64,000 nt of DNA from positions 12,823 to 76,822 of the forward strand of contig DAOSEC010000008.1 in the NCBI GenBank assembly GCA_035362935.1. Direction: 5' to 3'. The notes under the pieces are model-generated. The model saw only the letters and a list, made by a program, of their open reading frames with translations, was not told where the DNA came from and ran no database searches. The position numbers and the translations under genes were made by a program. This stretch comes from Bacilli bacterium (lineage in GTDB: Bacteria; Bacillota_I; Bacilli_A; ML615J-28; CAG-313). The first letter of the stretch is position 1. Each line of letters starts with the position of its first letter. Positions 15,041-37,465 of this stretch are shown here, piece by piece.

Positions 15041-15054
15041 CTCTTCAATATCGA

Positions 15055-15786
15055 TTATTTTCTTGTGGATAGTTCTTTTATCTTTTTATAATCTGTTCGG
15101 TCGTTTGTGAGTGGAGTAATGGAAATGTATCCATTCAAATAACTCATAACATCACCTTCTAGATCGTCTAATTTGGTTTTGCGATCTGGTTCACCAACCA
15201 TGTAATGTAATCCGTCCACGAGCTTGAAAATCGTTTGTGTTGCATTTTTCGTCTGATGTGTTATTTTGATACCGGTTGGATTTGAAGGTATGTTGATATT
15301 GTAAAACTGATTGGAATGCAACATGTGATTTTTTTGCATATAATCCATAATGGTTGTGAAGTTTTGTTTGAGCGCTTCTATGTTGCCTTTTGCAACTGAC
15401 AATGCAACTCCAACAGCTCCAAGCATCACACCTTCTGCAGCGCCGGCAACCGTTCCAGAATACATGACGTCATCTGCCATATTTAATCCATCGTTTGCTC
15501 CAGAGAATACCAAATCAAAGTCATATTTTAATGCAACTTTCGCCACCTTTACACAGTCAGCTGGTGTTCCATCTAAACTATAAGTTTTTACTCCTGGAAC
15601 AATATCTTCAAGTTGTTGTAATTTAAGACCATGACGAATTGTAATCGAATGTGATACGGCAGATTTTTCACTGCTTGGTGCGACAACCAATAAATCAACT
15701 TCATAGTCTGTTAAGCATTCAACGAGTGCTTTGATTCCTTTTGAGTGGACGGAATCATCATTTGTCACTAATACTTTTTTTCTCAT
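15055..15786 (-). CDS. surE: 5'/3'-nucleotidase SurE
   Basis: 243 aa. N-terminal VLVTNDDS…G motif and SGANDG…YSGTV motif. Confidence 0.85.
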   Translation of the reverse strand: MRKKVLVTNDDSVHSKGIKALVECLTDYEVDLLVVAPSSEKSAVSHSITIRHGLKLQQLEDIVPGVKTYSLDGTPADCVKVAKVALKYDFDLVFSGANDGLNMADDVMYSGTVAGAAEGVMLGAVGVALSVAKGNIEALKQNFTTIMDYMQKNHMLHSNQFYNINIPSNPTGIKITHQTKNATQTIFKLVDGLHYMVGEPDRKTKLDDLEGDVMSYLNGYISITPLTNDRTDYKKIKELSTRK

Positions 15787-16751
15787 AACAACTCCGGATT
15801 TTTTTGTTTGAATTCTTTTAATTTTTCATCTGCTAATTGTAACAATTCTTTGACTTCTTTGTTGTTATACATCGTAGCTCCTGCTGCTTGTAGGTGACCT
15901 CCACCTCTAAATTGTGAAGCAATGTCATTGATTGCTAAAAAGCGGGAACGAAGACGACCCCTAATCTCTCCATTTGGCTGATCAATAAACGCAATCCAAA
16001 TGAGTGATCCTTTGATGGAATCAATCGTATTTACCATATTTCCTGCTTCGTCTGGTGTTACACCAAATTTCTTTTGTGTTCTTTTTGTAAACCGAATATA
16101 GACAACTCCATTTGGAGTCATCTTGAAATTTTTATAAACAAACCCTTGTAATTTTAACGATTCTTTGTCTTTTAAATACAAAGATGAATATAGTTTTTCT
16201 AAGTCTATTTCTTTGTCTAATAATACACTCGCATTACGTAATACATCGCCACTTACTCCGCGGTAACGGAAACGCCCCGTGTCTGTTACAATTCCAAAAT
16301 ATAATGCATAAGCAGCTTCATATGGCAATTTTAAGTCTTCATCAAAATCATTGTAAAATCTTGCGAGTAACGCACTACAAGATGGACTCTTATTATCAAC
16401 AAAATTAATGTTTCCAAAATCCTCTGAATCATCGTGGTGATCAATCTTAATGACAAACTTTCCTTTTTGCCAATTATCGTTTTGAATGCGCTTTGCGTTT
16501 GATGTATCGACTACAATCACCAAAGCATCTTCATAAACCGATTCTTCCACCTCATCCATCGTTGCGAATCCTCTTAAGTATTCTGGAATTTCATCTCCAC
16601 CAACAGCGTAAATTTTCTTTTCTGGAAACGATGCTTGAAGCATATGTTTTAATCCCATTTGACTTCCAATGCAATCACCATCTGGTCTTACGTGTCTGTG
16701 GATAATAATGGTTTGAAATTCTTTTATTTTATTTAATATTTCTTGTGTCAT
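15783..16751 (-). CDS. nrnA: DHH-DHHA1 phosphoesterase, NrnA-type (nanoRNase/pAp phosphatase), copy 1
   Basis: 322 aa. HRHVRPDGD, DHHDD and C-terminal GGGHLQAAG motifs. Confidence 0.85.
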   Translation of the reverse strand: MTQEILNKIKEFQTIIIHRHVRPDGDCIGSQMGLKHMLQASFPEKKIYAVGGDEIPEYLRGFATMDEVEESVYEDALVIVVDTSNAKRIQNDNWQKGKFVIKIDHHDDSEDFGNINFVDNKSPSCSALLARFYNDFDEDLKLPYEAAYALYFGIVTDTGRFRYRGVSGDVLRNASVLLDKEIDLEKLYSSLYLKDKESLKLQGFVYKNFKMTPNGVVYIRFTKRTQKKFGVTPDEAGNMVNTIDSIKGSLIWIAFIDQPNGEIRGRLRSRFLAINDIASQFRGGGHLQAAGATMYNNKEVKELLQLADEKLKEFKQKNPELL

Positions 16752-16754
16752 TTG

Positions 16755-17693
16755 TTACACCCCTTTTGCTAATTGATTTAGATCTTCAATCATAGCGTCA
16801 ACAACTTCCCAACTTTCTACATTTGCTCCACTTGCTAACTTATGACCACCGCCACCATATTTGGTTGCAATTTCATTGATGTTTGCACCATTTGATCTTA
16901 GCTCTACCCATATCTTACCGGCTTCACTATCTTCTGTGAAATTTGCCCAAATATTGATTCCTTTAATCCCTGCCATAATATTCACCATGCCTCTTGAAAT
17001 AGTGAAGATATCAATGCCATAGGTTTTTACTTCTTCTTTGGTATTTTTTAATACTCCAACACCACTTGATGTGACAATAAATTTTTGCGTTAATGCGGCT
17101 CTTAGTTTAACAATTTCTAAGTCTTCTGAATATAAATTCATATATATACTTTCCAAATCAATTTTTTCTTTTAATAAATAACTTACCAAAGAAAATGTTC
17201 GGTCGGTTGTAGAAGCATATCGGAATCGCCCAGAATCCGTTACTATTCCTGTGAACAAAGACGAAGCTGCTTGTTGATTTAGTTTGAGCCCTGTTTGATA
17301 AAAGAAATCAGCAATGAGCCCCGCACACGATTCATACGATGTATCGACAAATTTTATATTTCCAAAACCTGTTTTTTCAATATGATGATCCATTTTAATC
17401 ACAAACTTAGCAAGCTTATATCGTTCATCACTAATCATAAATTCTTCCGCAACATCAAGGACAATTGCCAGTGCATTTGGATAAATGGAATCCTCTACAA
17501 TATCCATTTCTCCCATGAACTTTAATCGTTCATTCATATCACCAACAGCAACAATCAATTTATCTTTAAAATTTTCAATTAATCCATACTTTAATCCTAG
17601 TTGACAACCAAGCGCATCTCCATCAGGACGACTGTGTCTATGAATAATAATCGTATCAAATTCTTTAATTTTTTGTAATATTTCTTTAAACAT
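16755..17693 (-). CDS. DHH-DHHA1 phosphoesterase, NrnA-type, copy 2 (tandem paralog)
   Basis: 312 aa. HRHSRPDGD, DHH and GGGHKLASG motifs. Clearly homologous to the adjacent gene. Confidence 0.85.
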   Translation of the reverse strand: MFKEILQKIKEFDTIIIHRHSRPDGDALGCQLGLKYGLIENFKDKLIVAVGDMNERLKFMGEMDIVEDSIYPNALAIVLDVAEEFMISDERYKLAKFVIKMDHHIEKTGFGNIKFVDTSYESCAGLIADFFYQTGLKLNQQAASSLFTGIVTDSGRFRYASTTDRTFSLVSYLLKEKIDLESIYMNLYSEDLEIVKLRAALTQKFIVTSSGVGVLKNTKEEVKTYGIDIFTISRGMVNIMAGIKGINIWANFTEDSEAGKIWVELRSNGANINEIATKYGGGGHKLASGANVESWEVVDAMIEDLNQLAKGV

Positions 17694-17751
17694 GAGTTTC
17701 CTCCTACGATTATTTGATTATAGCATAATTATGAAAATTTCTCAAATCATT

Positions 17752-18252
17752 TTAATCATCCATTTGGCCCTTACATAACCGTTCTGCTTTGTATAAATCA
17801 TTGGTGTATAACATATTATCTGCGTAAATTGGTCCAACTCTAGCATAACCTAATCTTACTAAATTATAATTGAGTAGTTCACCATCAACCCATATCCAAG
17901 CAAGCAGACGTTTAAATCCAGAAAAGTCTCTTAACTTATCAAATGGATCGGTTTGCAAATATATATCTTTTGCGTTTGATAAAATCTTTTTTGTATATTC
18001 GGTTGCTTCTTTCCCACCAAATTGGACTGAAAATCTATTATGTTCCGGTGTATCAATATTAAAGAACCGAACGTGTTCGATAATTCCATCTACTAAAAAA
18101 GCAGCTGTGTCTCCATCAACAGGAAATTCAAAACTTACCTTTAGTGCACCACCTAATGGTTTCCCTTGTCGATCAGACCAAAACGGTCTACTCTTAAATT
18201 TATTTGCTAGTCTTGGTCCATCATATATATATGTTTTACGTAGTTCATTCAT
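17752..18252 (-). CDS. SNase-like (thermonuclease-family) protein without signal peptide
   Basis: 166 aa. DGDT…NIDTPE…RLLAWIWVDGELLNYNLVRLGYARV matches the staphylococcal-nuclease fold. No N-terminal hydrophobic segment. Confidence 0.7.
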   Translation of the reverse strand: MNELRKTYIYDGPRLANKFKSRPFWSDRQGKPLGGALKVSFEFPVDGDTAAFLVDGIIEHVRFFNIDTPEHNRFSVQFGGKEATEYTKKILSNAKDIYLQTDPFDKLRDFSGFKRLLAWIWVDGELLNYNLVRLGYARVGPIYADNMLYTNDLYKAERLCKGQMDD

Positions 18253-18299
18253 AATAGTTAATCACCTTTCGTTCATTATAACATATTATGTTTGACAAT

Positions 18300-18335
18300 C
18301 AAAAAAGAAAGAACATATATTTGTTCTTTCTTTCG
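18300..18335 (-). terminator. rho-independent terminator
   Basis: aaagaaagaaca-tatatt-tgttctttcttt hairpin with a U-tract on the minus strand, downstream of the 100-aa membrane protein gene. Confidence 0.55.
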
Positions 18336-18342
18336 TATGGCA

Positions 18343-18645
18343 TTATTTGTTCTTCTGCTTTTCTTTCGCCCAAATAAGAAGTGAGGAAACAAGTGTTCCA
18401 ATAAAAAACAACCCCGTCAATGAACCATACAAAAAATATCCAAGTGCACCCCAACCATCTGTTATAAAGGCCAACCCCCAAAAGATTGCGGATGCAACAC
18501 CAGAAACTATAGGAACAAAGAATGTTAACTTCTTGCTTATCTTTAACAATATTTTCGTAACACCAAATCCAATAAGACCACCCACAAAGATAAACACGAT
18601 AACTGTCAAAATTTCTGTAACAATGTTTGGATACATATCCAACAC
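18343..18645 (-). CDS. small membrane protein (3 TM)
   Basis: 100-aa hydrophobic ORF. Confidence 0.45.
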   Translation of the reverse strand: MLDMYPNIVTEILTVIVFIFVGGLIGFGVTKILLKISKKLTFFVPIVSGVASAIFWGLAFITDGWGALGYFLYGSLTGLFFIGTLVSSLLIWAKEKQKNK

Positions 18646-18711
18646 CTCCTACATCTATTTACACCTTGATTATATCTTTTTTTTAGAGATATTCCATAAA
18701 AACGATAATAT

Positions 18712-18754
18712 AAAAATGCACTTGATTGGATTGCTCCTTTCAAGTGCATTTTTA
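18712..18754 (-). terminator. rho-independent terminator after the 925-aa lipoprotein gene
   Basis: atgcacttga-(15 nt)-tcaagtgcat stem with flanking A- and T-tracts. Confidence 0.6.
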
Positions 18755-18779
18755 ATTAATTTTTTGTTATGCTAACTTG

Positions 18780-21557
18780 TTATTTCCAAGTATAAAGTCT
18801 AGCATCTGAGAAGTTTTGAGCATTCACAATCCATTGATCCCAATTGTTTGTTGCACTTGGTCCCATGAACTCTGGTTTTCTTATTAATGTTTTATCAAAT
18901 GTATATAATGATTCCCAAGCTGTTGAAGTACCTGATGCTGCGACATATGGTTCACCGAAGATACCAATAACATCAATCAAAGCACCATCTTTTAATAAAG
19001 TAACAACGTCTCCACCTTGACCATTGAATGCAATGGCTTCTTGTGTAGTTGAGTTATAAACGATAGAAATGACAGTGTGACCTGCTGCAGTAGCTTCTGC
19101 TAATCTTGCTAAAATTGCTGTGTCAGCTGCTTGTGAACTATGGAGAATTAATGACTTACCATGAGCTAATTCACCAGTTAATGCAACACCCCAGAATTTT
19201 GTTAAGTCAGTAACGCCTGTAATACCATTTGATTCTACAGCGGCATTATTAAATGATCCTAAACGATATCCTGTTAATGTAACAGTTGCACCTGTATTAT
19301 TGTAGATCGCGATTACTTTATTGTTAGATGAACCCTCAATATAGTAAGAAATAAACAAATCAGTTGCATATGTTGGAGCTTCTTCAGGAATAACAACGAT
19401 TGTTACAACTTGAGTTACAGCTTCTGCTGTTCCAACAGTGATTGTTGCTGTTAAAGTGATTGATTTGTTTTCTGTTACAGTTGCTAGAGTTCCTTCAGGT
19501 AATGTAATTAAACCTGCATTATCTCCACTTGCTGCCCAGCTAATTGTACCACCATAAACTGCGCTAGTTGTTGGTAATACAACTGTTGATCCCATATTGT
19601 ATTCTTTGTTATCAAATGCTGCTACTAACTCATCTTGAACTGCTTCTGCTTTTTCAGCATCAGTCATTTCAACTAAATTAATTTGATCTGGATGTCCAAG
19701 AGCGATTTGAGGTCCATTAAACCATCCAATGGTTGCTCCTTCAATTGTAACTTCATTACCAGCAGATAATGTTCCCATCTTAGTATTGATTTCGGTTAAG
19801 TTAGCTAATCTTGAATCTACTCTTAATGTAATGTCTGCAGTACCATTTGTTAATACTACGTTATACCCTGATGTAGAAACAGTAAATGCATCTTTAATAG
19901 TAAATCCGTAAAGATTAATTTTCTTAGCTTGTAGTGGAAGTAAAGTTGTTGCATCTACGGCTGTAATTGTTTCAGCAGCTACTACATTGTTTTGAGAAAT
20001 AACTGTTTTTGAAACAACAAATTCAATTTGATGTAATCCATTAAATGCGTTGTATTGTCCAACAACTTGAACTTTCGCACCAACTACATAATCAGCTACT
20101 GCATTTGCTAAGTCTGTTCCTGATAAACCATAATATACTACGATTCCACCAGTATTATCTTGGATATAAATATTACGTCCTACAACGTTTGTTACAACAC
20201 CTTCAACCATTACGAATGTTCCAACTGCTGTTGATTTTACCGCGTTGATTGTACTTAATTCAACTGGTTTAACCGTGATTGTTACTGTAACTTCTTCGCT
20301 TATTTCACCAACAGTAACGGTTGCTACTAAAGTAACATTTGTATCAGCAGATACGTTTCCTAATTTACCGTTTGTTAAGTTAATAACACTTGCGTTATCT
20401 CCTGTTGCTGCCCACGCGATTGTTGCGTTGAATGATGTGTTTTCTGTCGGAAGTGTTAATGTTGCACCAGATACACGGTTGATATTGTTAAATTGAGATG
20501 TTAACAATGTAGCAACTGCATCTGCTTTTTGTTGATCTGAAAGTTCTGGAGCATCAATTTCAACGATAGAACCTTCTGTTGGTGTATAATCTACTGACCA
20601 ACCAGGAATACGAGTATCATAGTAGTAAACTGAAATACGAATACGTACAAACTTATCGATAAATGCATTTAATCCTGATGCATTTGGATTTGCAGTTGTG
20701 TCTGGTTCATATGTTCTGTAATAAATTTGAATTTCTTTTGCTGTAAATGGATCTTGAATAAAGTAGTCTTTATTTGATCCTGATACTTTTTGGATTAGCT
20801 TACCTTCAACTACATTTAAGTCACCTTGAATAGCAGCACTTGTTGGTGCTTCACTTGCTATTGCATCGACTGTTTTTGGAGTTGGAGTCGGAAGTGTGTT
20901 TCCACTTGATACTTTAACAATACCAACTGTACCACCAATTTGAGGTGCTCCAAAATAAACAGCACGTTTACCAGTAACTCTTACTAAGTCACCTAGTGCA
21001 ACTGTAGTATGTGCTGCGAACACAAAGATTCCACCAGTTGAGTCAGAAATAAAGAATCCTGAGAATCCGCTGTTGAATTTTGCAAATACAACACCTTCAG
21101 TTTCCACATCCGCATTAAGAGCAGCTGCTTTCACTTCTGCAATTGTTTGTGTTGTTACATCTGGTAATGCTCTAACACGTACTGTAAATTCTTTCGTGTC
21201 AGTAATTGTCTTTGTTGTTTTTCCATCCATGTATTGAATGGTTAACGTTGCTGTAATTTTGACAGTTTTGTCTCCTTCAGCGAACACTGGTCTTGTAACA
21301 ACACCTGTATTAGAAATATATGCAGGGCTGTCAGTTTCCCAAGTAATGGTAACATCATGTCTTCCTTCTGCAAGGAATTCAATGTTGTTAACAATATTGC
21401 TCATATCAGCAATAATAAGTGATGTCTTTGCTTCTTCAAGTAATGCTCTTGCTTGTTCTTCTGCCGCTTTATCTGTACATGCAGTTAATGCGATTCCAAA
21501 GAAGAAAATAGCAACTAGACTAAACAATCTTTTCAGATTGAGTTTGGATAATACCAT
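18780..21557 (-). CDS. large surface lipoprotein: 3 Ig-like repeats, 2 OB-fold nucleic-acid-binding-like domains, C-terminal lamin-tail (LTD) domain
   Basis: 925 aa. Lipobox LTAC. Three repeats of T(I/S)WxxxGDNAxxIxL…xTATxTVG. Two segments of the form VxGVVTxVxxxxxYIQDxTGGIxVY (OB-fold, as in extracellular nuclease N-terminal domains). C-terminal YYIEGSSNNKVIAIYNNTGATVTLTGYRL is LTD-like. Strong GGAGG RBS. Confidence 0.7.
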   Translation of the reverse strand: MVLSKLNLKRLFSLVAIFFFGIALTACTDKAAEEQARALLEEAKTSLIIADMSNIVNNIEFLAEGRHDVTITWETDSPAYISNTGVVTRPVFAEGDKTVKITATLTIQYMDGKTTKTITDTKEFTVRVRALPDVTTQTIAEVKAAALNADVETEGVVFAKFNSGFSGFFISDSTGGIFVFAAHTTVALGDLVRVTGKRAVYFGAPQIGGTVGIVKVSSGNTLPTPTPKTVDAIASEAPTSAAIQGDLNVVEGKLIQKVSGSNKDYFIQDPFTAKEIQIYYRTYEPDTTANPNASGLNAFIDKFVRIRISVYYYDTRIPGWSVDYTPTEGSIVEIDAPELSDQQKADAVATLLTSQFNNINRVSGATLTLPTENTSFNATIAWAATGDNASVINLTNGKLGNVSADTNVTLVATVTVGEISEEVTVTITVKPVELSTINAVKSTAVGTFVMVEGVVTNVVGRNIYIQDNTGGIVVYYGLSGTDLANAVADYVVGAKVQVVGQYNAFNGLHQIEFVVSKTVISQNNVVAAETITAVDATTLLPLQAKKINLYGFTIKDAFTVSTSGYNVVLTNGTADITLRVDSRLANLTEINTKMGTLSAGNEVTIEGATIGWFNGPQIALGHPDQINLVEMTDAEKAEAVQDELVAAFDNKEYNMGSTVVLPTTSAVYGGTISWAASGDNAGLITLPEGTLATVTENKSITLTATITVGTAEAVTQVVTIVVIPEEAPTYATDLFISYYIEGSSNNKVIAIYNNTGATVTLTGYRLGSFNNAAVESNGITGVTDLTKFWGVALTGELAHGKSLILHSSQAADTAILARLAEATAAGHTVISIVYNSTTQEAIAFNGQGGDVVTLLKDGALIDVIGIFGEPYVAASGTSTAWESLYTFDKTLIRKPEFMGPSATNNWDQWIVNAQNFSDARLYTWK

Positions 21558-21599
21558 GTTTTTTTCCTCCTATATAACAATTCTAATTGTTATCAAAAA

Positions 21600-22844
21600 T
21601 TAGTTATGAAAAGTGATATCGTTAAACGATCCTAATAATAGTTGGTATTGACCACTATAAACCCCAATCGGAGCTACAATATCAATATTTTTCCCATTAA
21701 AGTATTCCCAAGTTCTTATTCTATTGTCTTGTGGTGCTGGTATGCTTAAATCGCGAATCGCAATATCAGAAGCAACACGCACTTCAATTGTATTGTTTTG
21801 TGAATCACGAATTCGGAACGTAAATGCATTGTTTGCAGAATCATATCCGCTATAAACAGTAACATTTTCTAATTTTACAAATCTTCCCGATATCGTTGGG
21901 TTTGTTGTGCGATTCAATTCACTAATTGTCATAACCGTTGGAACGACTTCATTTCCTGTTGATAAGACAGTAATTTTTGAATCACGAGTATCTGTAATTT
22001 GTGGTGCACCTGTTTCTTGATCTGGATGGTATACCATAGTTCCTTCGATACGAAGTTCAAACCCAACTACAAGTTTTTGTAATTGTGTAAATCCTGCGTA
22101 TACATAGATACCATAGCATCCGGTTTCTCCAGAACAATCTTCAACATATGCACTAAATCCTAAGACTCTAGTCACAATACCTACGACTGCAACTTTTTTA
22201 TTTGCATACTCGGCCTCGTTTGTTCTTAGTTCTTCAAGTGTGACTTGAGTCCCTTCAATTGAATAATTAAATCCAGGGTCTTGTTCTCCCCAAATGCGTT
22301 TTCCTTTGGTTTGAGTTCTCATATCCGCATTGAAGATAACTTCTGCGTATTTAGATCCACTCGCACCTTTTGAGGTTGTAAACGATTCTTCAATCAGTTC
22401 TAAATTTAACAACTTTCCATCAACCCATACCCATGCAAGGTATCTTGTTCCTGTAGAATCAAGAACTGGTTGATTTCCCTCTGCTTCTAATACGATTTTA
22501 GTCGCATTGTTTAATCGGTTAGCTGTATAATCTGAGGCTGCTTTTCCCCACGGGTCAATACGGTATGTTGATTCTGGGGTATCAATACCTAAGAATCTTA
22601 CACGGAATGGTTGACTGGTTGCTGTTTTGAACATTGCTGTATCACCATCTGCGACACTTACAAGTGTAACCTCACCAATACCATGTAAAAAGAAATCTTT
22701 CCCAGTATAATCTCTTTCAAGAGTTGTTCGATTGGTATAATAATGGATCTCCCATTCTTCTTCCCCTGGTTTATTATCACAAGCAGTTAAACTAAATGAG
22801 AATATACCTAGTAGAAGTAGAAGTATGAATTTTTTAAGTTTCAT
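21600..22844 (-). CDS. SNase-family (thermonuclease) surface lipoprotein with C-terminal extension
   Basis: 414 aa. Lipobox LTAC. SNase motifs VADGDTAMF…RFLGIDTPE…RYLAWVWVDGKLLNLELI. Confidence 0.8.
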   Translation of the reverse strand: MKLKKFILLLLLGIFSFSLTACDNKPGEEEWEIHYYTNRTTLERDYTGKDFFLHGIGEVTLVSVADGDTAMFKTATSQPFRVRFLGIDTPESTYRIDPWGKAASDYTANRLNNATKIVLEAEGNQPVLDSTGTRYLAWVWVDGKLLNLELIEESFTTSKGASGSKYAEVIFNADMRTQTKGKRIWGEQDPGFNYSIEGTQVTLEELRTNEAEYANKKVAVVGIVTRVLGFSAYVEDCSGETGCYGIYVYAGFTQLQKLVVGFELRIEGTMVYHPDQETGAPQITDTRDSKITVLSTGNEVVPTVMTISELNRTTNPTISGRFVKLENVTVYSGYDSANNAFTFRIRDSQNNTIEVRVASDIAIRDLSIPAPQDNRIRTWEYFNGKNIDIVAPIGVYSGQYQLLLGSFNDITFHN

Positions 22845-22847
22845 TGA

Positions 22848-24161
22848 TTACCAAACCAATTCGTTGATTGCATCAGCGTAAGCTTGATCGATAGTTTTTC
22901 CACCATATAGAACAGCTCTGATTAATGATTGTGATTCATCACGTGCAAGTGAAGATCCTGGGAATGCTGCTGATGTAAAGAACTTGTCTCTTTGTCCGTA
23001 ACCGATGGTAGCACTCTTAACAAAAATACTATCCGGATTTGCTAAGAATGTTGCATAAGTTGGATGAGTATATGCGCTTTCGCGTACTGGGAAGTATGCT
23101 GTTGATGCTGAGAAGTATGCTGTTTCTGCAGTTGAAGTTAAGAACTTAACAAACAACCAAGAAGCTAAGCGTTGATCATCTGTTGCATTAGAGAAAATAG
23201 TAACGTTTGTCCCTTGTTGAATAACAGCTGGAACTGCTCCTGCTCCATCATATTGAGGGATTGGTGCTACTCCTACTTCGAATGCAGTTGTATTATTGTG
23301 TTGTGCTCCTGCACTTGATCCAACAGTCATATAGATTGTTTCTGCTTTGAATACGTCAGATGCATAGTTTGCACCATCAAAATGAGTTGGTGTTGCAGCT
23401 AAGCGGTCTGTGTATAAATCTTTAAAATAAGTAACAGCTGCTTTTGATTGAGCGTTGTTAAATAAAATTTCTCCATTCACATTTGTGTATTGTCCGCCCC
23501 ATTGTTGTGTCAATGTAATGAAAAGGTTCGCTTCTGAATCGTATGCAAAACCTACTTTTCCGTTTAATGTTTTGATTTGTTGAGAAACGGTTCTAACCTC
23601 AGCCCAAGTTGTTGGAACTGTCAAAGAATTTTGATCAAAGAACGTTTTGTTATAAAACATTACTTCAGTTGATTTGTTAAATGGTAATGAATAATAGGTA
23701 CCCGCTTCATCATAGATGGTTCCTTCAGCTAAGAATGATGGAACAAAATCATCTAAATCCGCTTGTGTAAACCCATGAGTTGCATTTTCCATATATTTAT
23801 CTAAAGGTAATACTGCTCTACCTTGTAAATATACAGCCACATGGTCTGGATATGTTTGAGCAATGTTCGGCTCTGTTCCTGCAGAAATTGCTTTTGTAAT
23901 CTTGTCACGTAAGTCTGTGTATCCACCTTGTCCTGCTTGGATTACTGTAACATTTGGATAAATTACATTAAATCTGTCAATAATGTCTTGGATATATCCT
24001 TGGTTTGCTTGACCCATCGCATGCCAGAACGTGATGGTAATCGGGTCAGTTGTAAGTTGGTCTGGAATAACAATTTCGCGGTCTTTTAAATTTGTGTTTC
24101 CGCAACCTGCTACTACAAACATTGCAACTAGAACGACTAATAAACTTAACAGTTTTTTCAT
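22848..24161 (-). CDS. ABC transporter solute-binding lipoprotein, CUT1 (sugar-type, family 1)
   Basis: 437 aa. Lipobox VAGC. ITFWHAMG signature of family-1 solute-binding proteins. Confidence 0.85.
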   Translation of the reverse strand: MKKLLSLLVVLVAMFVVAGCGNTNLKDREIVIPDQLTTDPITITFWHAMGQANQGYIQDIIDRFNVIYPNVTVIQAGQGGYTDLRDKITKAISAGTEPNIAQTYPDHVAVYLQGRAVLPLDKYMENATHGFTQADLDDFVPSFLAEGTIYDEAGTYYSLPFNKSTEVMFYNKTFFDQNSLTVPTTWAEVRTVSQQIKTLNGKVGFAYDSEANLFITLTQQWGGQYTNVNGEILFNNAQSKAAVTYFKDLYTDRLAATPTHFDGANYASDVFKAETIYMTVGSSAGAQHNNTTAFEVGVAPIPQYDGAGAVPAVIQQGTNVTIFSNATDDQRLASWLFVKFLTSTAETAYFSASTAYFPVRESAYTHPTYATFLANPDSIFVKSATIGYGQRDKFFTSAAFPGSSLARDESQSLIRAVLYGGKTIDQAYADAINELVW

Positions 24162-24215
24162 ATACTTTTCAATCCTCCGTTTGTATATAAATCTATATTC
24201 ACTAAAAACTTAGTT

Positions 24216-25088
24216 TTAGCCTTTAATACCGCTTCTTGATACCCCTTGCATAATGTATTTACGCAAGAACAAGAATACGAGTAATAATGGAACTGTAACC
24301 ACTGTGGTTGCAGCCATTTGTAAATGAATTTGTGAACGACCTTGATCGTCAGTGAATGCTTTTCTCAATCCGTTTGTAATCAAACGCATCGAATCGCTAT
24401 CTGCTACTAGATTTGGCCAAATGTATGCATTCCATGAACCAATTAATTTTAGAATGGTAATTGATATAATGGTTGGCATTGCGATTGGAACCATAACACG
24501 TAGTAGATACTTGAAGTCTCCTGTGCCATCGACTTTCGCTGCTAAATATAATTCATTTGGTATTTGCTTGAAGTTTTGTCTTAATAAGTAGATATAAAAT
24601 ACACTGACAACGAATGGAATAATGAGGGCTTGATAGGTATCAATCCATCCCAATCTAGCAACTGTAATGTAGTTTGTAATAACCATCATTTCCCCTGGAA
24701 TCATCATCGTTGCTAAGAACAAAGTAAATAATATGTTTTTACCTTTGAACTCAAGTCGAGCAAACGCGAATGCTGCAAAAATTGTTGTAACAACGGTACC
24801 AACCGTAGAGACCACACCTACAAAAATTGTGTTGTAGATATATCGTGCAAAATCGGCTTGCATCATTGCATTTGGGAAATTTTGGAAATTTAATAATTGT
24901 GGGAATAGTGTAGGTGGAATCATTTCTGTTTCTGCTTGAGTTTTTAAAGCAGAGATAATCATCCAATAAAACGGAACGACAACGATAATTGCCATAATAC
25001 CTAAGAAACCATATACTAGAATATTTTTTAAAATTAATTCTACTTTATATGATTTTTCTAAATTTTTAACATTCATTTTTTCTGTCAT
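24216..25088 (-). CDS. ABC transporter permease (MalG-like)
   Basis: 290 aa, 6 TM. EAA-loop-like LAAKVDGTGDFKYLLRVMVP. Confidence 0.85.
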   Translation of the reverse strand: MTEKMNVKNLEKSYKVELILKNILVYGFLGIMAIIVVVPFYWMIISALKTQAETEMIPPTLFPQLLNFQNFPNAMMQADFARYIYNTIFVGVVSTVGTVVTTIFAAFAFARLEFKGKNILFTLFLATMMIPGEMMVITNYITVARLGWIDTYQALIIPFVVSVFYIYLLRQNFKQIPNELYLAAKVDGTGDFKYLLRVMVPIAMPTIISITILKLIGSWNAYIWPNLVADSDSMRLITNGLRKAFTDDQGRSQIHLQMAATTVVTVPLLLVFLFLRKYIMQGVSRSGIKG

Positions 25089-25098
25089 AGCGCACCTC

Positions 25099-26007
25099 CT
25101 AGTAATGTACCCGTTTTTTACTGATGTACAAGTTGATGAAGGTGAAGATCAAGATGATCACGAAGAGGAATAACGCAGCTGCGGCTGCCCATCCTGCCGA
25201 CCCTTCTCCAACACGGGGGTCACTCAAACTTCGATATAGGAACCATACTATGGTACCAATTCCTTTGTCGCGAATGCTAGTATCTAGTCCGAATAACGCA
25301 ACAACTGATGTATACTCTTTAAACGCTCCGATAAATGATGTTACAGCAACATAGGCAATCATTGGAGAAAGAAGAGGAACTGTAATTCTTGTGAATACTC
25401 GAACTCTTGGTGTTGAGTCGATTTGAGCTGCTTGATAATATTGTTTATCAATCCCTTGCAAACCACTTAAGAAAATTAGAATCTTAAACGGAAGTGCTTC
25501 CCACACGGAATAAATTAACAACACTGTCATTGCTCTACCCCAACCTGCTCCGTATCCTACCCAGTTAATTGCATTGTCAAGTCCTAACCAACCAATAATG
25601 GTATTGATAAGTCCATAACTTTGATTAAACATAACCGCAAATACCATCCCAATCGCGATTGTATTTGTAACGTATGGTAAGAAGAAAATAGTTTGGAATA
25701 CTTTTTGTAATGGCTTAATGGAGTTTAGTCCAACAGCGATTAACAACGATAACATTATAGATATTGGAACAGATACAAACACGATAAAGAATGTGTTGGA
25801 TACTGTTCTCCAGAATATTTGATTTCGGAATATGAAGGCAAAGTTACCAAATCCGAATTGAGTGAACTCACCTGTCATATAATTGTATTTTTCTTTAAAC
25901 GCGATTAGAATCGTATTAAAGAGGGGATAGAAGATAAATATTGCCATTAATATTAGAGCGGGTGCTAAATATAACCAGGCCTTGAGGTTGTTTTTACTCT
26001 CAACCAT
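25099..26007 (-). CDS. ABC transporter permease (MalF-like)
   Basis: 302 aa, 6 TM. EAA loop YQAAQIDSTPRVRVFTRITVP. Confidence 0.85.
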   Translation of the reverse strand: MVESKNNLKAWLYLAPALILMAIFIFYPLFNTILIAFKEKYNYMTGEFTQFGFGNFAFIFRNQIFWRTVSNTFFIVFVSVPISIMLSLLIAVGLNSIKPLQKVFQTIFFLPYVTNTIAIGMVFAVMFNQSYGLINTIIGWLGLDNAINWVGYGAGWGRAMTVLLIYSVWEALPFKILIFLSGLQGIDKQYYQAAQIDSTPRVRVFTRITVPLLSPMIAYVAVTSFIGAFKEYTSVVALFGLDTSIRDKGIGTIVWFLYRSLSDPRVGEGSAGWAAAAALFLFVIILIFTFINLYISKKRVHY

Positions 26008-27068
26008 TACTTCATTCGCTCCTCGGTTTCTTTGTTAAATACGAAGCATTTATTTGGACGAATGTTTACTTTGATTACCCCGCTATTTGGAACTTCTGTA
26101 TCGGCATCAACAATACCTCTTAATGTGTGACCATCAAAATTAGGATGTTTTGCGATAATCGAAATGTCACGTCCTAAATGTTCAATAGATGCAACTTCGA
26201 TTGAAAGTTTTCCGTCTTTTTTAACGTCAAATCCTTCAGGTCGAATTCCAATTGTTACATCTTGATCTTTTGCTTTAAACGGTAATATTGCTTCATCACC
26301 AATGTATAGTTGATTGTCTTTGATTGAACCATTGAATAGGTTGATCGGTGGCGTTCCTAAGAACTTTGCAACGAATAAATTATCAGGATCGTCATATACA
26401 TGTTGTGGTTGACCTGTTTGTTGCATTAATCCGAGTTTCATAACTACGATATTGTCAGAAATACTCATTGCTTCTTCTTGGTCATGTGTAACGAAGATGG
26501 TTGTGATTCCCGTTTCTTTTTGGATACGACGAATTTCTTCACGTGTTTGTAAACGAAGTCTCGCATCTAGGTTAGATAAGGGCTCATCAAGTAACAACAC
26601 TCTTGGTTCTTTTACGAGTGCTCTTGCGATTGCAACACGTTGTTGTTGACCACCGGATAACTGTTTTGGTTTTCTTCCCATTAGATTTCCAATACCAACT
26701 AAATCAGCGTAATATTGCGCCTTTTTTAATGCTTCATCTTTTGGCATTTTCATGTTTTCAAGTGGAAACAAAATGTTTTGCTTTACTGTCATATGAGGGT
26801 ATAACGCATAGTTTTGAAACACAAGACCAATTCCTCGTTTTTCTGGTGGTGTTTTTGTAACATCCTCATCCCCAAAGAAGATTTCTCCTTCTGTGGGTTG
26901 TAGTAAGCCAGCAATCATATAGAGTGTTGTTGATTTACCACAGCCAGAAGGACCGAGTAGACCAATTAGTTTTCCTGATGGAATGGTGATGTCTAAATTA
27001 TCTACAGCACGAACCTCTGCATCTTTTTCCGAAAAAATCTTGGTCAATTTTTTCAATGTAATTTCCAT
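26007..27068 (-). CDS. ABC transporter ATP-binding protein (MalK/UgpC-type with C-terminal TOBE domain)
   Basis: 353 aa. Walker A GPSGCGKST, signature LSGGQQQRVAIARAL, Walker B LLLDEPLSNLD. Confidence 0.9.
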   Translation of the reverse strand: MEITLKKLTKIFSEKDAEVRAVDNLDITIPSGKLIGLLGPSGCGKSTTLYMIAGLLQPTEGEIFFGDEDVTKTPPEKRGIGLVFQNYALYPHMTVKQNILFPLENMKMPKDEALKKAQYYADLVGIGNLMGRKPKQLSGGQQQRVAIARALVKEPRVLLLDEPLSNLDARLRLQTREEIRRIQKETGITTIFVTHDQEEAMSISDNIVVMKLGLMQQTGQPQHVYDDPDNLFVAKFLGTPPINLFNGSIKDNQLYIGDEAILPFKAKDQDVTIGIRPEGFDVKKDGKLSIEVASIEHLGRDISIIAKHPNFDGHTLRGIVDADTEVPNSGVIKVNIRPNKCFVFNKETEERMK

Positions 27069-27119
27069 ATAAATCCTCCAATACGTATTTTCTCAATACA
27101 TACATAAATTATGTAGCAT

Positions 27120-27132
27120 TGAAATCGTTTGC
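27120..27132. promoter_or_regulatory. cre-like (CcpA-box-like) element just downstream of the -10
   Basis: TGAAATCGTTTGC resembles the cre consensus TGWAANCGNTNWCA with 2-3 mismatches. Its position, overlapping the transcription start, is typical for repression. Confidence 0.25.
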
Positions 27133-27138
27133 TTAATA

Positions 27139-27167
27139 ATTATACCATATTTGACAATAACATGCAA
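27139..27167 (-). promoter_or_regulatory. promoter of the ABC/nuclease operon (TTGCAT-17 nt-TGgTATAAT, extended -10)
   Basis: Revcomp 27162-27167 is TTGCAT and revcomp 27139-27147 is TGGTATAAT. Confidence 0.45.
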
Positions 27168-27299
27168 AGGTAAAAACGATACATTTTCGAAATTTTACAT
27201 GAATTTTACCCACATATAAAACAAAAAAAACCACCTAAAAAGATGGTTTTTCACATTTTAATTTTAATTGCACGTTTGATACTTAAAAATTATTTCCTA

Positions 27300-27572
27300 C
27301 TATGGTTTAATGACAAAGAAGTATATTGCAGCCCCGATTCCACCAATAATAGCTAGCGTAACAAAAAACTTAATGAACTTTTTAATAATGACAAAGATTC
27401 CTAATACACTTAACAACCCTGCAGCAATCACGATTGCGGCTTGGAGATACGGTGCTAAGTTATTGAAAAAAGGCATAATTAAATTCATTAATTGGGTTCC
27501 CCATTGGTTCAGAGTACTTTGAACGGTACCCCATAGTTCAGAAAATGAAAATAAAAATTGCATTGATTTCAC
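27300..27572 (-). CDS. small membrane protein (2 TM)
   Basis: 90 aa. It occupies the slot downstream of recR where yaaL/bofA sit in Bacillus. Identity not established. Confidence 0.45.
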   Translation of the reverse strand: MKSMQFLFSFSELWGTVQSTLNQWGTQLMNLIMPFFNNLAPYLQAAIVIAAGLLSVLGIFVIIKKFIKFFVTLAIIGGIGAAIYFFVIKP

Positions 27573-27578
27573 CTCAAT

Positions 27579-28178
27579 TTAAAATTCTTTGCGTCCTTCA
27601 ATTGCTTTTTTCAAAGTAATCTCATCCGCATAATCTATATCGCCACCTGCTGGTAGCCCGTAACCAATCCGCGTTATTAATAGGTGATCTTTCTTTAGGA
27701 TTTTAGCCAAATAGGAAGCAGTTGTGTCTCCTAATGCTGTTAAGCTGGTTGCTAAAATGATTTCTTCAATCGGGTCTTTTGTAATACGTTCTTCTAGTGT
27801 TTTGATATTAATATCATCTGGACCTATTCCATCTAGCGGAGAAATGACACCATACAACACATGATATACGCCATTATATTGTTTGGTTTCCTCTAATATT
27901 ATAACATTCTTTGCTGATTCTACAACCATTATTTTATTTTTATTACGAGTGATGTCTCTACATATCGAGCAAATTTCTTGTTCTGTTAGCATACCACATA
28001 TCTTACACTTACGAATTTTAGTGGTTGACTCTGCTAAAGCTACTTGAAAATCAACAACATCTTGACTGCTGAATTTATCTATTGTGAAAAACGCCATCCT
28101 GCTTGCCGTTTTTGGACCAACTCCTGGATACTTTTGAAATGCCTCTATTAATTTTTGAAGCGATTTTAAATCATTCAA
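27579..28178 (-). CDS. recR: recombination protein RecR
   Basis: 199 aa. HhH plus C4 zinc finger (CKICGMLTEQEICSIC) plus Toprim. Confidence 0.9.
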   Translation of the reverse strand: MNDLKSLQKLIEAFQKYPGVGPKTASRMAFFTIDKFSSQDVVDFQVALAESTTKIRKCKICGMLTEQEICSICRDITRNKNKIMVVESAKNVIILEETKQYNGVYHVLYGVISPLDGIGPDDINIKTLEERITKDPIEEIILATSLTALGDTTASYLAKILKKDHLLITRIGYGLPAGGDIDYADEITLKKAIEGRKEF

Positions 28179-28187
28179 CGTCTGCTC

Positions 28188-28502
28188 CTAAAATAGATTT
28201 CCCATTCCGCCCAAGAATGATTGGAACTTCGCCATCTTAGTTTTGGTAAATTTATCGATCTCTGTATATGCTTGGCTGCATGCAGCGACAACCATTTCCC
28301 CCAACATTTCAAGATCTTCTGCTCCATCTACAGTAAAATCATCACTGACTTTAACGTTTTGTAATTGTTTGTTTCCAAGCATTTCAATTGTAACCACACC
28401 ACCAGCACTTGATGTGAATACCGTTTCTTCGATTTCTTTTTGTGTGCGCTCCATATCTTCTTGCATTTTTTTAAGTTGTCTTAACATAGCTTGTTGATTC
28501 AT
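28188..28502 (-). CDS. ybaB: nucleoid-associated protein YbaB/EbfC
   Basis: 104 aa. Conserved dnaX-ybaB-recR order. Confidence 0.9.
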   Translation of the reverse strand: MNQQAMLRQLKKMQEDMERTQKEIEETVFTSSAGGVVTIEMLGNKQLQNVKVSDDFTVDGAEDLEMLGEMVVAACSQAYTEIDKFTKTKMAKFQSFLGGMGNLF

Positions 28503-28515
28503 GTATCGGTACCTC

Positions 28516-31398
28516 TTATTCTTCGATTTTAATTAGACCTTCTCCAAATAAGGATCTAGCCTTTTCTACTGTCTTATTTTTCTCAGTTGTTAGTGGAGAT
28601 TCTATCTCATCTGCTACTCTTAAATCTGGATTGTCAATTGGTTTTAATTTTGGGAATTTAACTCCCATATTGTATTGACCAACGTATTCGCTTCGTTTTT
28701 CTACCCATATATCATTTGGTAAGGCAATGTACGATAATGGTTTCCCTAGTTTTGTTTTAAAAATTAGGTTTGCCTCATCTTTCATTTTCTTACTCATAAC
28801 ATGATTGCACATACTAATGGATGGATAGGTTATAATAATGGAGTTAATCCCAATTGCTGAAACAGTTGCATTCATTAACAGTCGTGCAATGTTTTCAAGA
28901 GAAACGCTTATTCCTTTGTCAAGATTTCTCCACTCAGAAATAATACGACTACGTTCACTTTTTGCCTCATCCGATCTTGAGTCATGTAAAATTTGTTCTA
29001 TGTATGATACATCATACGGATCCTTGATTTCTTTTTCAACAACAGGTGGTTCAGCTTTGATCACTTCTTTTTCTTTGTGTGGTTCTGATGCACCAGATTT
29101 CCCAATGATAATCGGCTTTTCTTCACGAACTTGCTTTTCTGTCTTTGGTGATATCACTGTTGTTGGCACTTCTTTTATTGGTGCTGTTTTTTCGGGTTGT
29201 ATCTCTATAGGGATTTTCTGGGCTTCTTGCTTGTCTTGTTTTGAAATGTTTTCAAACATTGAAAGTGTGGATAGGTTTTCGTGTTCTACAATTTGTAGTT
29301 TTCCTTCTACTTCACTTAATTTACTTCCAAGTTTTTTTACAAATTCGCTCAATTGTGCAAGTTTTATATCAATCTTGTCTACAAACACTTGTTTTTCATC
29401 TACTTGGTCAAACTTAGCATTTATACTTACCAACATCTCTTTGATTGTTTGTTTTAATTCTTCAATTAAATTTAGCAAATCATTGTTTTCGGTCGTCCAT
29501 TTAAGATTGAGTTCGGCAATCATTTTTTCATTTTCGTCGATTGATAGATTCACTTTTTCGATTGACAACTTTAAGTTTTCGTCGCTTTGTGTCATTGACT
29601 CACTTAGTTCAGTCATCAGATTAAGCATTTTGGTGTGATCGTTTTCAATATGTTCGATTTTATCATATACCAAATCGAGATTGACTTCTTTTTCTAAGGA
29701 GAACAAATCGGGAGCATCTATACTTGTTTGATCTATCTTACTTGTCTTATCTGCTACTTGTGTCAAATCTATCGAATCAATCACTTGTTTTAATTCTTTG
29801 ATTTCCTTTTGAACTTTTTCATGTTGGTGCTTCAACTGCTTTTCAAGTGTGATTTTATCTTCTTCTAGTTGATTCACTTTTAGATATAAATCATCAAACT
29901 TGATTGTTGAGTTTTCCAAATCAAACACTGGTTTTTCTTCTTCGTCTAATGTGAATAATTCTTGACCGCTGTTTTTCAGTTGGTTTAGTTCCGTTCTTAT
30001 GTTTTCTATTTCTATTGAATAATCAATTACTGGTTCGTTATACTTTAAGTTGGCTAGTTGTTTTTTAATTTCATCTAGTTCAACTGAATAATCATGACCA
30101 CCTTGTTGTGAAATCATTTCGTTCGCATCTATTTTTTGCTTTAATTTTGGAAGTTCTAATTTTGTAATTTCACTGATGAGTTTATTTACTTTTGCATCAA
30201 TCATCTCAATTTTAGAATTATCCACAGTCCCATTTTCAACGTGATGAGATACTCCCTTCATATTGAGAAGACGTTCTTCGATTTGATGTATTTTATGTTG
30301 AATGTCTAGATCGTCATCGGTCATATTAATAATCTTCATAACACCAACTTCTAAATAGATTCTTGGGTTATTTGAGTATTTTAATTTGTTTTGAATATCC
30401 ATAATAACATCGATGTAAAAATATACTCGCTTTTTGTCAATCTTTGATGCTAACTTTTTAAATTCTGGATTATCAAATATATATTTAAAGACGGTTTGTC
30501 CTGTTGTATTTTGATATAGTAAGATATCTCTACAGAATTGAAGCAACCCTGAAACAAGACGGTTCACTTCTTTTCCAAGTTCTAAAATTTCATCCACAAT
30601 TTTTATTGCTTCTGCTACATTGGTTCCCTCAAAACTATTTACCAAATCAATTAACTTATAATTTGAGATGCGACCAGTCACGCTATTGACATCATCAATT
30701 GAAATGACATCATCACTATACGAAATCGATTGGTCTAAAATACTTAACGCATCGCGCATACCGCCTTCAGCTGTTTCAGCGATAGCATCAAGTGCATCTT
30801 CTTTCACTTTAATGGCTTCTCGTTTTGTCACTTCTTGTAATTTTATTTTAATTTCTTGACTAGATAGTGCCTTGAAATCAAATCGTTGGCATCTTGATAT
30901 GATTGTCATAGGTATCTTATGGGCTTCGGTGGTTGCTAAAATAAATATGACGTGTGCAGGCGGTTCCTCTAATGTTTTAAGCAACGCATTAAATGCAGAA
31001 GTTGATAACATATGTACTTCATCAATAATATATACTTTAAACTTAGAATTGGATGGTAGATAATTCACCTTTTCTAAGATTTGACGAATCTCTTCTACCC
31101 CATTGTTGCTTGCGGCATCGAGCTCAATGATATCTGTGGATTGGTTGTACATAATAGACAAACAACTAGCACATTGATTGCATGGTTCTTTGGTTGGAGC
31201 AGACGCACAATTGACCGCTTTCGCTAGAAGTCTGGCAATCGTTGTTTTTCCGATACCTCTTGGACCACTAAACAAATACGCATGGCTAATCTTATTTGCC
31301 TTGAGTGCGTTTTGTAATGTTTTTTTAATGTGGTTTTGTCCTGCTACTTCGGAAAACGTGGATGGTCTATATGTTCTATATAATGCTTTATATGCCAT
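28516..31398 (-). CDS. dnaX: DNA polymerase III subunit tau (DnaX), unusually long with internal coiled-coil insertion
   Basis: 960 aa. N-terminal AAA+ clamp-loader module (GPRGIGKTT, zinc-binding CNQCASC, SRC). About 350 aa of heptad-rich, K/E/L/N-rich sequence follows domain III. The C-terminal tau-specific domain is retained. Confidence 0.85.
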   Translation of the reverse strand: MAYKALYRTYRPSTFSEVAGQNHIKKTLQNALKANKISHAYLFSGPRGIGKTTIARLLAKAVNCASAPTKEPCNQCASCLSIMYNQSTDIIELDAASNNGVEEIRQILEKVNYLPSNSKFKVYIIDEVHMLSTSAFNALLKTLEEPPAHVIFILATTEAHKIPMTIISRCQRFDFKALSSQEIKIKLQEVTKREAIKVKEDALDAIAETAEGGMRDALSILDQSISYSDDVISIDDVNSVTGRISNYKLIDLVNSFEGTNVAEAIKIVDEILELGKEVNRLVSGLLQFCRDILLYQNTTGQTVFKYIFDNPEFKKLASKIDKKRVYFYIDVIMDIQNKLKYSNNPRIYLEVGVMKIINMTDDDLDIQHKIHQIEERLLNMKGVSHHVENGTVDNSKIEMIDAKVNKLISEITKLELPKLKQKIDANEMISQQGGHDYSVELDEIKKQLANLKYNEPVIDYSIEIENIRTELNQLKNSGQELFTLDEEEKPVFDLENSTIKFDDLYLKVNQLEEDKITLEKQLKHQHEKVQKEIKELKQVIDSIDLTQVADKTSKIDQTSIDAPDLFSLEKEVNLDLVYDKIEHIENDHTKMLNLMTELSESMTQSDENLKLSIEKVNLSIDENEKMIAELNLKWTTENNDLLNLIEELKQTIKEMLVSINAKFDQVDEKQVFVDKIDIKLAQLSEFVKKLGSKLSEVEGKLQIVEHENLSTLSMFENISKQDKQEAQKIPIEIQPEKTAPIKEVPTTVISPKTEKQVREEKPIIIGKSGASEPHKEKEVIKAEPPVVEKEIKDPYDVSYIEQILHDSRSDEAKSERSRIISEWRNLDKGISVSLENIARLLMNATVSAIGINSIIITYPSISMCNHVMSKKMKDEANLIFKTKLGKPLSYIALPNDIWVEKRSEYVGQYNMGVKFPKLKPIDNPDLRVADEIESPLTTEKNKTVEKARSLFGEGLIKIEE

Positions 31399-37457: not shown

Positions 37458-37465
37458 ATCATCAC

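Follow-up and report, generated by a model that had tools for sequence, protein, structure and literature searches.

A probable nucleic-acid-foraging locus in an uncultured Bacilli bacterium and a tentative case for oligonucleotide import through its Ugp-like ABC transporter

Loci for the use of external DNA are known from Candidatus Izemoplasmatales, where they were named 'DNA-degradation loci' (Wasmund et al., 2021, Nat Microbiol; PMC8289736, Fig. 6). The supplement of that study reports YhcR-like OB domains (CDD YhcR_OBF_like) and proposes that the large protein of the locus keeps polymeric DNA near the cell during digestion. Candidatus Xianfuyuplasma coldseepsis zrk13 degrades DNA, its growth is boosted by DNA, and its cluster is induced on DNA, as measured by quantitative reverse transcription PCR (Zheng et al., 2021, PMC8397711); the corresponding locus of Hujiaoplasma nucleasis zrk29 has an equivalent DNA response (Zheng et al., 2023, PMC10470597). 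In X. coldseepsis, a gene named 'EddB' rose 20-fold on DNA. Here we describe a locus of this type in a 64,000-nucleotide stretch of DNA (hereafter, the window) from the metagenome-assembled genome (MAG) of an uncultured 'Bacilli bacterium' (GCA_035362935.1, contig DAOSEC010000008.1, positions 12,823 to 76,822 of the forward strand). Six proteins of the window are identical to NCBI entries in the range HOI46759-HOI46770. The core of the locus is an operon of six intact, co-oriented minus-strand open reading frames (ORFs; 18780-27068, translation table 11), which encode the ATPase and two permeases of an ABC importer, a solute-binding lipoprotein (SBP), a lipoprotein with a staphylococcal nuclease (SNase) domain, and a 925-aa lipoprotein with OB modules and a lamin-tail domain (LTD).

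The locus type is already published, and the window locus belongs to it and is not a new kind of system. As in the Izemoplasmatales loci, CUT1-type ABC genes, the SBP, the SNase lipoprotein and the large OB/LTD lipoprotein are followed, in the same order, by a second SNase and NrnA-type DHH genes. X. coldseepsis also shares the flanking genes dnaX-ybaB-recR, and its big protein (P0014) is homologous to the 925-aa protein; identities are low, at 27% between the big proteins and 34% between the SBPs. Other parts differ. A 1,049-aa Izemoplasma protein was reported to have a 'C-terminal endonuclease I domain', whereas the 925-aa protein is without it by Pfam, NCBIfam and fold search. In the window, the second SNase is a truncated form without a signal peptide, SurE comes after the DHH genes, and no Pst operon adjoins the locus; the host, moreover, is an uncultured Bacilli MAG.

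A comparable arrangement has been described in mycoplasmas. In Mycoplasma bovis, MBOVPG45_0307-0311 form a 'putative nucleotide transporter operon', in which ABC genes of the 'oligosaccharide' type stand together with genes for a nuclease lipoprotein and for P81, a homologue of the DNA-binding MslA (PMC4045577). This operon and its counterparts (mhp379, MAG_5040, and MGA_0676 with MslA) have in common with the window an SNase lipoprotein co-oriented with CUT1 ABC genes, a non-catalytic lipoprotein that binds polynucleotides (in the window, putatively), and the proposed logic of binding, cutting and import (PMC4045577). Unlike them, the window has a canonical SBP, and the mycoplasma model assumes that mononucleotides are imported. 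A preliminary description of this DNA had presented the DNA-capture protein as an extension of the pattern seen in Mollicutes; it was anticipated twice, by the Izemoplasmatales loci (PMC8289736) and by the Mycoplasma MslA/P81 operons (PMC4045577). The Mollicutes framing does not suit the host either, which uses TGA as a stop codon and does not belong to the classical mycoplasmas. A Mollicute genetic code, with TGA read as Trp, was ruled out, because all ORFs are intact under table 11.

The SBP (437 aa; 22848-24161, minus strand; lipobox VAGC20; SBP_bac_8 1e-40) belongs to CUT1 cluster D. When it was used to search PDB sequences, the best matches were the Thermus 7C0* series (7c0x/7c0f, E 2e-34), followed by UgpB proteins (7e-22 to 6e-16) and by maltose and oligosaccharide binders (1e-13 and weaker). 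The AlphaFold2 model of the SBP had a predicted local distance difference test (pLDDT) of 93, and the top 25 matches to this model in Foldseek were again 7C0* entries (E 6e-30, TM 0.85). The PDB titles of these entries read 'dinucleotide-binding protein ... bound to uridylyl-3'-5'-phospho-guanosine' (UpG), the ligand being endogenously bound; the identity of the entries rests on these titles and on one citing paper (PMC12718374). This Thermus protein (U3GBP; PDB 7C0F and 17 related entries; Chandravanshi et al., 2021, FEBS J, as cited in PMC12718374) is the closest to the SBP by sequence and by fold. It differs in belonging to another subfamily, and the U3GBP family is centred on Thermaceae.

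PMC12718374 places the U3G-binding CUT1 protein of Thermus thermophilus in the UgpB branch and states that UgpB, glycerophosphocholine (GPC)-binding and U3G-binding proteins share two Tyr and two Ser phosphate ligands. According to the same paper, two Trp arose only in UgpB, where they clamp glycerol, a clamp that is implied by the title of PDB 6X84. We took eight U3GBP mutants from PDB titles and mapped them to the window SBP through a HMMER alignment. Four residues are identical (Y56, S127, Y224 and Q274 of U3GBP are Y81, S164, Y266 and Q316 of the SBP), two substitutions are conservative (N81 to D106 and T240 to S282), F79 corresponds to Y104 and is still aromatic, and Y246 corresponds to H288, a position at which at least 90% of the family has Tyr. 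Seven of the eight mapped sites are invariant, being among the 53 invariant columns of a 28-sequence alignment of the SBP family (A2).

As judged from these alignments, the pocket resembles that of a dinucleotide binder and not that of UgpB, because Trp169 and Trp172 of Escherichia coli UgpB have as their counterparts Ser209 and Asn212, which are invariant across the SBP family (the clamp is absent), and because UgpB carries Glu, Gly and Val where U3GBP has Y224, Q274 and N81, positions at which the SBP matches the dinucleotide binder. We infer that the SBP may bind di- or short oligonucleotides. It had been suggested in the preliminary description that substrates are recognised by their sugar moiety; against this, the SBP lies in the phosphate-recognising UgpB/U3G branch, and its nearest solved relative binds UpG and has its mutated residues conserved in the SBP.

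Two further comparisons were made with the SBP. A true UgpB identity was ruled out, since the Trp clamp is absent and the score against the NCBIfam UgpB equivalog (83 bits) is far under its cut-off of 411. Residues 4-172 weakly match the NCBIfam model NF045826, 'P68 family surface lipoprotein' (E 2e-9, 36 bits), in an alignment that includes the signal peptide, which may inflate the score. It is a possibility that the large surface lipoproteins of Mycoplasma (of the P68, P81 and MslA kind) descend from an SBP of this type.

The surface nuclease is a lipoprotein of 414 aa (21600-22844, minus strand; lipobox LTAC22; PF00565 41 bits, cut-off 21). The Pfam SNase match covers residues 81-185, and the domain itself extends over about 59-189 and is followed by a C-terminal OB-type module. 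The Ca2+ and catalytic residues D21, R35, D40, T41, E43 and R87 of Staphylococcus aureus nuclease are all present as D68, R83, D88, T89, E91 and R134, and Y85 is replaced by Thr. By analogy with characterized members of the family, the protein is probably an active nuclease. In its C-terminal half it is similar to each of the two OB modules of the 925-aa protein (E 8e-4 and 4e-3), so that the enzyme would carry a putative DNA-binding module of its own. OB domains are likewise joined to an SNase domain in Bacillus subtilis YhcR; in contrast to YhcR, the window protein is a lipoprotein and has neither a 5'-nucleotidase domain nor a sortase signal.

The functional unit is larger than the six genes to which the preliminary description had limited it, since just downstream, in a conserved order, come the genes for a second SNase, two NrnA-like proteins and SurE. 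The import of intact oligomers is supported because the products of SNase-type enzymes are 3'-phosphorylated mono- and oligonucleotides, the locus has no gene for a secreted phosphatase or nucleotidase, and all phosphoesterases of the locus are cytoplasmic. We found no signal peptide in the 166-aa second SNase, in either DHH protein or in SurE. The two NrnA-like DHH/DHHA1 phosphoesterases (312 aa, 16755-17693; 322 aa, 15783-16751; both minus strand) both have Pfam DHH and DHHA1 domains and are 43% identical to each other; the second is named NrnA by PGAP. For both proteins, NCBIfam NrnA was by far the best model (243 and 240 bits, under the cut-off of 350), and the DHH and GGGH motifs are present. 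One of the paralogues could be a cyclic di-AMP (c-di-AMP) or pApA phosphodiesterase of the PdeM/Pde2 type. The SurE 5'/3'-nucleotidase (243 aa; 15055-15786, minus strand; PF01975 2e-48; TIGR00087 152 bits, cut-off 135) is encoded by a gene with a 4-nt overlap with the second DHH gene.

To place the locus among its relatives, a genome scan was seeded with the SBP alignment and recovered 487 related SBP loci in reference genomes. Genes were mapped by tblastn in the best 80 of the 487, and the denominators that follow are the loci with enough sequence. ABC genes were upstream of the SBP in 71 of 74 loci, and an SNase came directly after it in 57 of 74. Of 56 loci, 52 had a big-protein homologue within 5 kb, and 40 of 46 had a downstream DHH gene. 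An ENA metagenome contig, X. coldseepsis and most of the best 80 loci shared the order ATPase, permease, permease, SBP, SNase, big protein, (SNase), DHH, DHH, (SurE). Two loci with a homologue of the 925-aa protein had the order dnaX, ybaB, recR, small ORF, ATPase, permease, permease, SBP, SNase, big protein, SNase, DHH, DHH. The gene arrangement is far beyond chance, because the identical order recurs in dozens of genomes.

The hosts of the best 80 loci include Acholeplasmataceae, Acholeplasma equifetale, Haloplasma (Haloplasmataceae), Mariniplasma, Izemoplasmatales and 'Mycoplasmatota bacterium WC44', as well as many animal-gut MAGs labelled 'Bacilli' or 'Mollicutes'. The loci closest to that of the window are in MAGs of gut or digester type, not of marine sediment. 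The best genome match to the window SBP had only 49% identity, and thus the lineage of the window has no close representative in the scanned collection. Two loci, L055 (Turicibacter sp. UBA7094) and L077 (a Bacillota MAG, with two tandem SBP genes), had the ABC genes and SBP followed by DHH and SurE, with no SNase and no OB/LTD protein. The ABC-DHH-SurE linkage therefore persists without either the nuclease or the big protein, and this connects the transporter with the cytoplasmic enzymes; survival of the linkage where nucleases are absent also supports oligomer import.

These results can be arranged in a model of four steps. The 925-aa lipoprotein would bind polymeric nucleic acid and keep it at the membrane, as suggested by its folds and by the lack of a catalytic fold. 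The OB-bearing 414-aa SNase lipoprotein, in which the catalytic residues are conserved and for which activity is assumed from the family, would cut the bound polymer into short 3'-phosphorylated products. The SBP would take di- or short oligonucleotides through the phosphodiester and the bases and pass them on to the UgpA/E-like permeases, with the UgpC/MalK-like ATPase driving the transport. In the cytoplasm, the pair of NrnA-like DHH/DHHA1 proteins and SurE would yield mononucleotides, nucleosides and phosphate, a step suggested by conserved adjacency and by the known activities of these families.

We consider that a function in DNA or RNA foraging in general is very probable. The whole four-step scheme of nucleic-acid utilization, organized like a polysaccharide utilization locus (PUL) but for DNA or RNA, is likely. 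That di- or oligonucleotides specifically are imported, as the comparison of the SBP suggests, is a matter on which we judge the chances to be even. The most inclusive proposal is offered tentatively: that the Ugp-like CUT1 transporter here and in hundreds of relatives imports SNase-made di- or short oligonucleotides intact through a U3GBP-like SBP, with the NrnA pair and SurE finishing the degradation, in a 'selfish', PUL-like system that is ancestral to the nuclease-ABC operon of Mycoplasma and widespread in gut and environmental wall-less Bacilli.

The same foraging role could be served by the import of nucleosides or nucleobases after full extracellular digestion. From the nucleases and nucleosidases encoded next to the best SBP matches, Wasmund et al. 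proposed 'probable nucleoside or nucleobase transporters' (PMC8289736), a proposal that goes against oligonucleotide import and with which the nucleoside option of the earlier description is compatible. We regard it as unlikely, as the locus encodes no secreted nucleotidase or phosphatase that would make nucleosides, SurE and both DHH proteins being without signal peptides. Known nucleoside ABC importers, in addition, belong to another family (CUT2/BmpA type), which counts against this explanation. So does the position of the SBP in the phosphate-recognising UgpB/GPC/U3G branch, together with the Tyr and Ser phosphate-ligand positions that it keeps, as these are given in PMC12718374. A true Ugp system for sn-glycerol-3-phosphate or glycerophosphodiesters would make the cluster a phosphate-starvation regulon that joins organophosphate uptake to the release of phosphate from DNA, and not a pathway for nucleotides or for carbon from DNA. 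The best NCBIfam models of the four transporter proteins are indeed UgpC, UgpA, UgpE and UgpB, and in X. coldseepsis a Na/Pi cotransporter, a response regulator (PhoB-like), Pst and PhoU come after the DHH genes; in the window, a gene for a Na/Pi-cotransporter-PhoU fusion (33477-35141, plus strand) is located 6.4 kb upstream of the operon, past recR, dnaX and a radical-SAM gene. However, all four scores are far under the curated cut-offs (83 against 411 for UgpB), Ser209 and Asn212, both invariant, stand in place of Trp169 and Trp172, the residues equivalent to Y224, Q274 and N81 agree with the dinucleotide binder instead of UgpB, and there is no glycerophosphodiesterase (UgpQ/GlpQ) gene in the locus, so we find a Ugp function quite improbable.

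An ordinary oligosaccharide uptake operon would have a glycan-binding 925-aa protein and a nuclease that is either an unrelated neighbour or a factor degrading biofilms or neutrophil extracellular traps. The source annotation of the transporter, 'multiple sugar transport system', would agree with it, and the aBig_2 domains of the 925-aa protein and its best structural match in the fold search (the GH43 arabinanase AbnA) come from glycoside hydrolases; a few relatives have CBM_4_9. No glycoside hydrolase is encoded in or beside the operon, however, and maltose and oligosaccharide binders are further from the SBP than the U3G-binding and UgpB proteins. The association of SNase, OB/LTD protein and NrnA is kept across deep lineages, and homologous loci respond to DNA (PMC8397711, PMC10470597). 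These points leave sugar uptake as a very remote prospect.

Several points weigh against foraging on nucleic acids with import of oligonucleotides. The SBP is only 28.5% identical to the Thermus protein, a distance at which specificity often shifts, and the one site of the eight that is not kept is His in the window SBP. That the mutated residues contact the ligand is itself deduced from the titles of PDB entries. The Thermus U3GBP gene lies with two permease genes, with no nuclease or NrnA nearby, so that the physiological meaning of its ligand is itself uncertain; this gene context neither supports nor weakens the dinucleotide inference. In the 925-aa protein, the structural model is poor at residues 551-630 and of moderate to poor confidence in the LTD, and for OB folds of the secreted BOF/YgiW type the binding of nucleic acids is not proven. 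The DHH and SurE genes form transcription units of their own, each behind its own promoter-like sites and terminators, and a stand-alone DHH pair has housekeeping functions in Mycoplasma pneumoniae, as NrnA and the c-di-AMP phosphodiesterase PdeM (PMC5508000). The housekeeping genes dnaX-ybaB-recR and rpoE are also conserved beside the locus, so that in these lineages little weight can be put on conserved gene order.

With regard to the operon itself, all six genes were found exactly at the coordinates given in the preliminary description, and its domain calls (MalK-type ATPase, two permeases, family-1 SBP, SNase, and a protein with Ig-like and lamin-tail domains) were matched by Pfam and NCBIfam. 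The spacing of '3-55 nt' between genes was essentially right for four junctions (10, 54, 3 and 42 nt, from 5' to 3'), but the first junction is a 1-nt overlap. The single promoter proposed ahead of the operon also stood. This sigma-70-type site (27139-27168, minus strand) has a -35 box TTTGCA, an 18-nt spacer and an extended -10 box TGgTATAAT, and is located between a terminator hairpin and the GGAGG ribosome-binding site that precedes the start codon of the ATPase gene. The site is conserved in a relative, L001, whose proteins are 47-88% identical to those of the window (most of them 66-88%): the -35 box, the extended -10 box and a downstream AAGCAAAC box are identical, and the spacer and flanks differ. 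About 20 nt upstream of the promoter, at about 27185-27195 (minus strand), there is a conserved palindrome, TTTCGAAA, which is identical in L001 while the surrounding bases diverge, and which could be the operator for some regulator. Over the region as a whole, promoter-like sites were not enriched (30 observed and 45 expected).

The intrinsic-terminator hairpin upstream of the promoter (27225-27252, minus strand; 12-bp stem followed by a T-run, z -4.0; sequence conserved in L001) ends the upstream recR/small-ORF unit and sets the 5' boundary of the operon. At the other end, a 53-nt intrinsic-terminator hairpin with a U-run (18706-18758, minus strand; -23.3 kcal/mol, z -7.0; none of 200 shuffled sequences folded equally well) marks the 3' end of the six-gene unit. 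A single transcript of the six genes, from 27068 to 18780, is well supported by these predicted signals because terminators bound the unit and because a conserved promoter and a ribosome-binding site precede it. A riboswitch or leader RNA was ruled out: the Rfam search of positions 13000-32000 at E <= 0.1 gave no match, and none in the leader.

The importer corresponds to the CUT1 family (TC 3.A.1.1), as it combines a MalK/UgpC-type ATPase, two permeases of the MalF/G-UgpA/E type and a family-1 (cluster D) binding protein. The ATPase (353 aa; 26007-27068, minus strand; Pfam ABC_tran 1e-37) is of the UgpC/MalK type; its C-terminal OB_MalK match is weak (26 bits, cut-off 27), and its best NCBIfam model is UgpC, at 355 bits and under the cut-off of 432. 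The UgpA/MalF-like permease (302 aa; 25099-26007, minus strand) and the UgpE/MalG-like permease (290 aa; 24216-25088, minus strand) both have a BPD_transp_1 domain, and the gene of the former is the one that overlaps that of the ATPase by 1 nt.

The 925-aa lipoprotein (18780-21557, minus strand) was analyzed with Pfam, NCBIfam and an AlphaFold model. It has a signal peptide with lipobox LTAC27 (residues 1-27), followed by aBig_2 (42-130), OB module 1 (134-335), aBig_2 (341-430), OB module 2 (435-630), aBig_2 (633-723) and the LTD (731-925; Pfam match 731-866). Internal repeats were detected between residues 338-417 and 630-709 (44% identity, E 2e-21) and between 138-232 and 436-536 (32% identity, E 2e-5), which indicates two copies of an aBig_2-plus-OB module. 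The model has a mean pLDDT of 73.5 and is confident at 30-550 and 630-725. The two OB folds claimed for this protein were recovered by structure prediction and fold search, and its non-catalytic character agrees with our results, since no nuclease domain was found by Pfam, NCBIfam or fold search and the protein ends with the LTD.

Residues 153-254 of the protein match the N-terminal segment of the ExeM/NucH model. ExeM/NucH proteins resemble it in this OB-type segment and in the LTD; in contrast to them, the window protein has no endonuclease/exonuclease/phosphatase (EEP) catalytic domain. Membership of ExeM/NucH was ruled out, given the lack of the EEP domain and scores of 39-46 bits against cut-offs of 300 and 1300. 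The family of the 925-aa protein is small, with 43 matches that include one protein of X. coldseepsis and one of an Acholeplasmataceae MAG. By Pfam, its close relatives have aBig_2, LTD, OB or carbohydrate-binding/Flg_new domains alone. As the relatives carry no catalytic Pfam domains, the protein is most likely non-catalytic, in agreement with its predicted structure, and it may capture or scaffold DNA at the cell surface.

Between the operon and the downstream enzymes is a gene for a small membrane protein of 100 aa (18343-18645, minus strand), with its own ribosome-binding site and terminator (18334-18303) and no family match; a different assembly of this contig type has it as a gene of 97 aa. 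The second SNase (166 aa; 17752-18252, minus strand; PF00565 3e-11) keeps the catalytic motifs. A comparison of N-termini across loci showed that most other lineages have an SNase lipoprotein of about 480 aa at this position and that the short form occurs only in the window and in L001. By this comparison, the 166-aa protein is a truncated counterpart of the longer lipoprotein. It may represent a remnant in decay or act as a nuclease in the cytoplasm.

Upstream, the operon is flanked by a small hydrophobic ORF (90 aa; 27300-27572, minus strand) with no family match, and then by recR, ybaB and dnaX. A small ORF between recR and the ATPase gene is also present in L001, where it was found as a tblastn match to the window ORF; in X. 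coldseepsis (L002), the correspondence is by position only. In the rest of the window, dnaA is at 56574-57980 (plus strand), and the GC and AT skews change sign there (about 56-62 kb). The replication origin is thus probably inside the window; about 30 kb separate it and dnaA from the operon, which is transcribed away from them. Two adjacent genes (35190-39457, minus strand) encode MacB-like fusions of an ABC-ATPase and an FtsX-permease, of 755 and 663 aa. A 1,138-aa protein (44989-48405, minus strand) has an N-terminal GHL10 glycosyl-hydrolase-like domain and about 750 residues without a domain match.

What this analysis adds to the published locus type is how far the locus extends in this genome, how widely the type occurs outside marine Izemoplasmatales, and a substrate hypothesis distinct both from recognition by the sugar moiety and from the published 'nucleoside or nucleobase' proposal. 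By the literature so far, the transported species could be a nucleoside, a base or a nucleotide. A testable prediction now comes from the similarity to a dinucleotide binder together with the cytoplasmic location of all phosphoesterases in the locus. If it is correct, the annotation of many 'sugar' or 'Ugp' transporters would change, and the otherwise orphan class of dinucleotide-binding SBPs would acquire a physiological role. It would also explain why NrnA genes track such operons, possibly in mycoplasmas too. Extracellular DNA is a major pool of phosphorus, nitrogen and carbon, and a source of nucleotides for bacteria that are unable to make their own.

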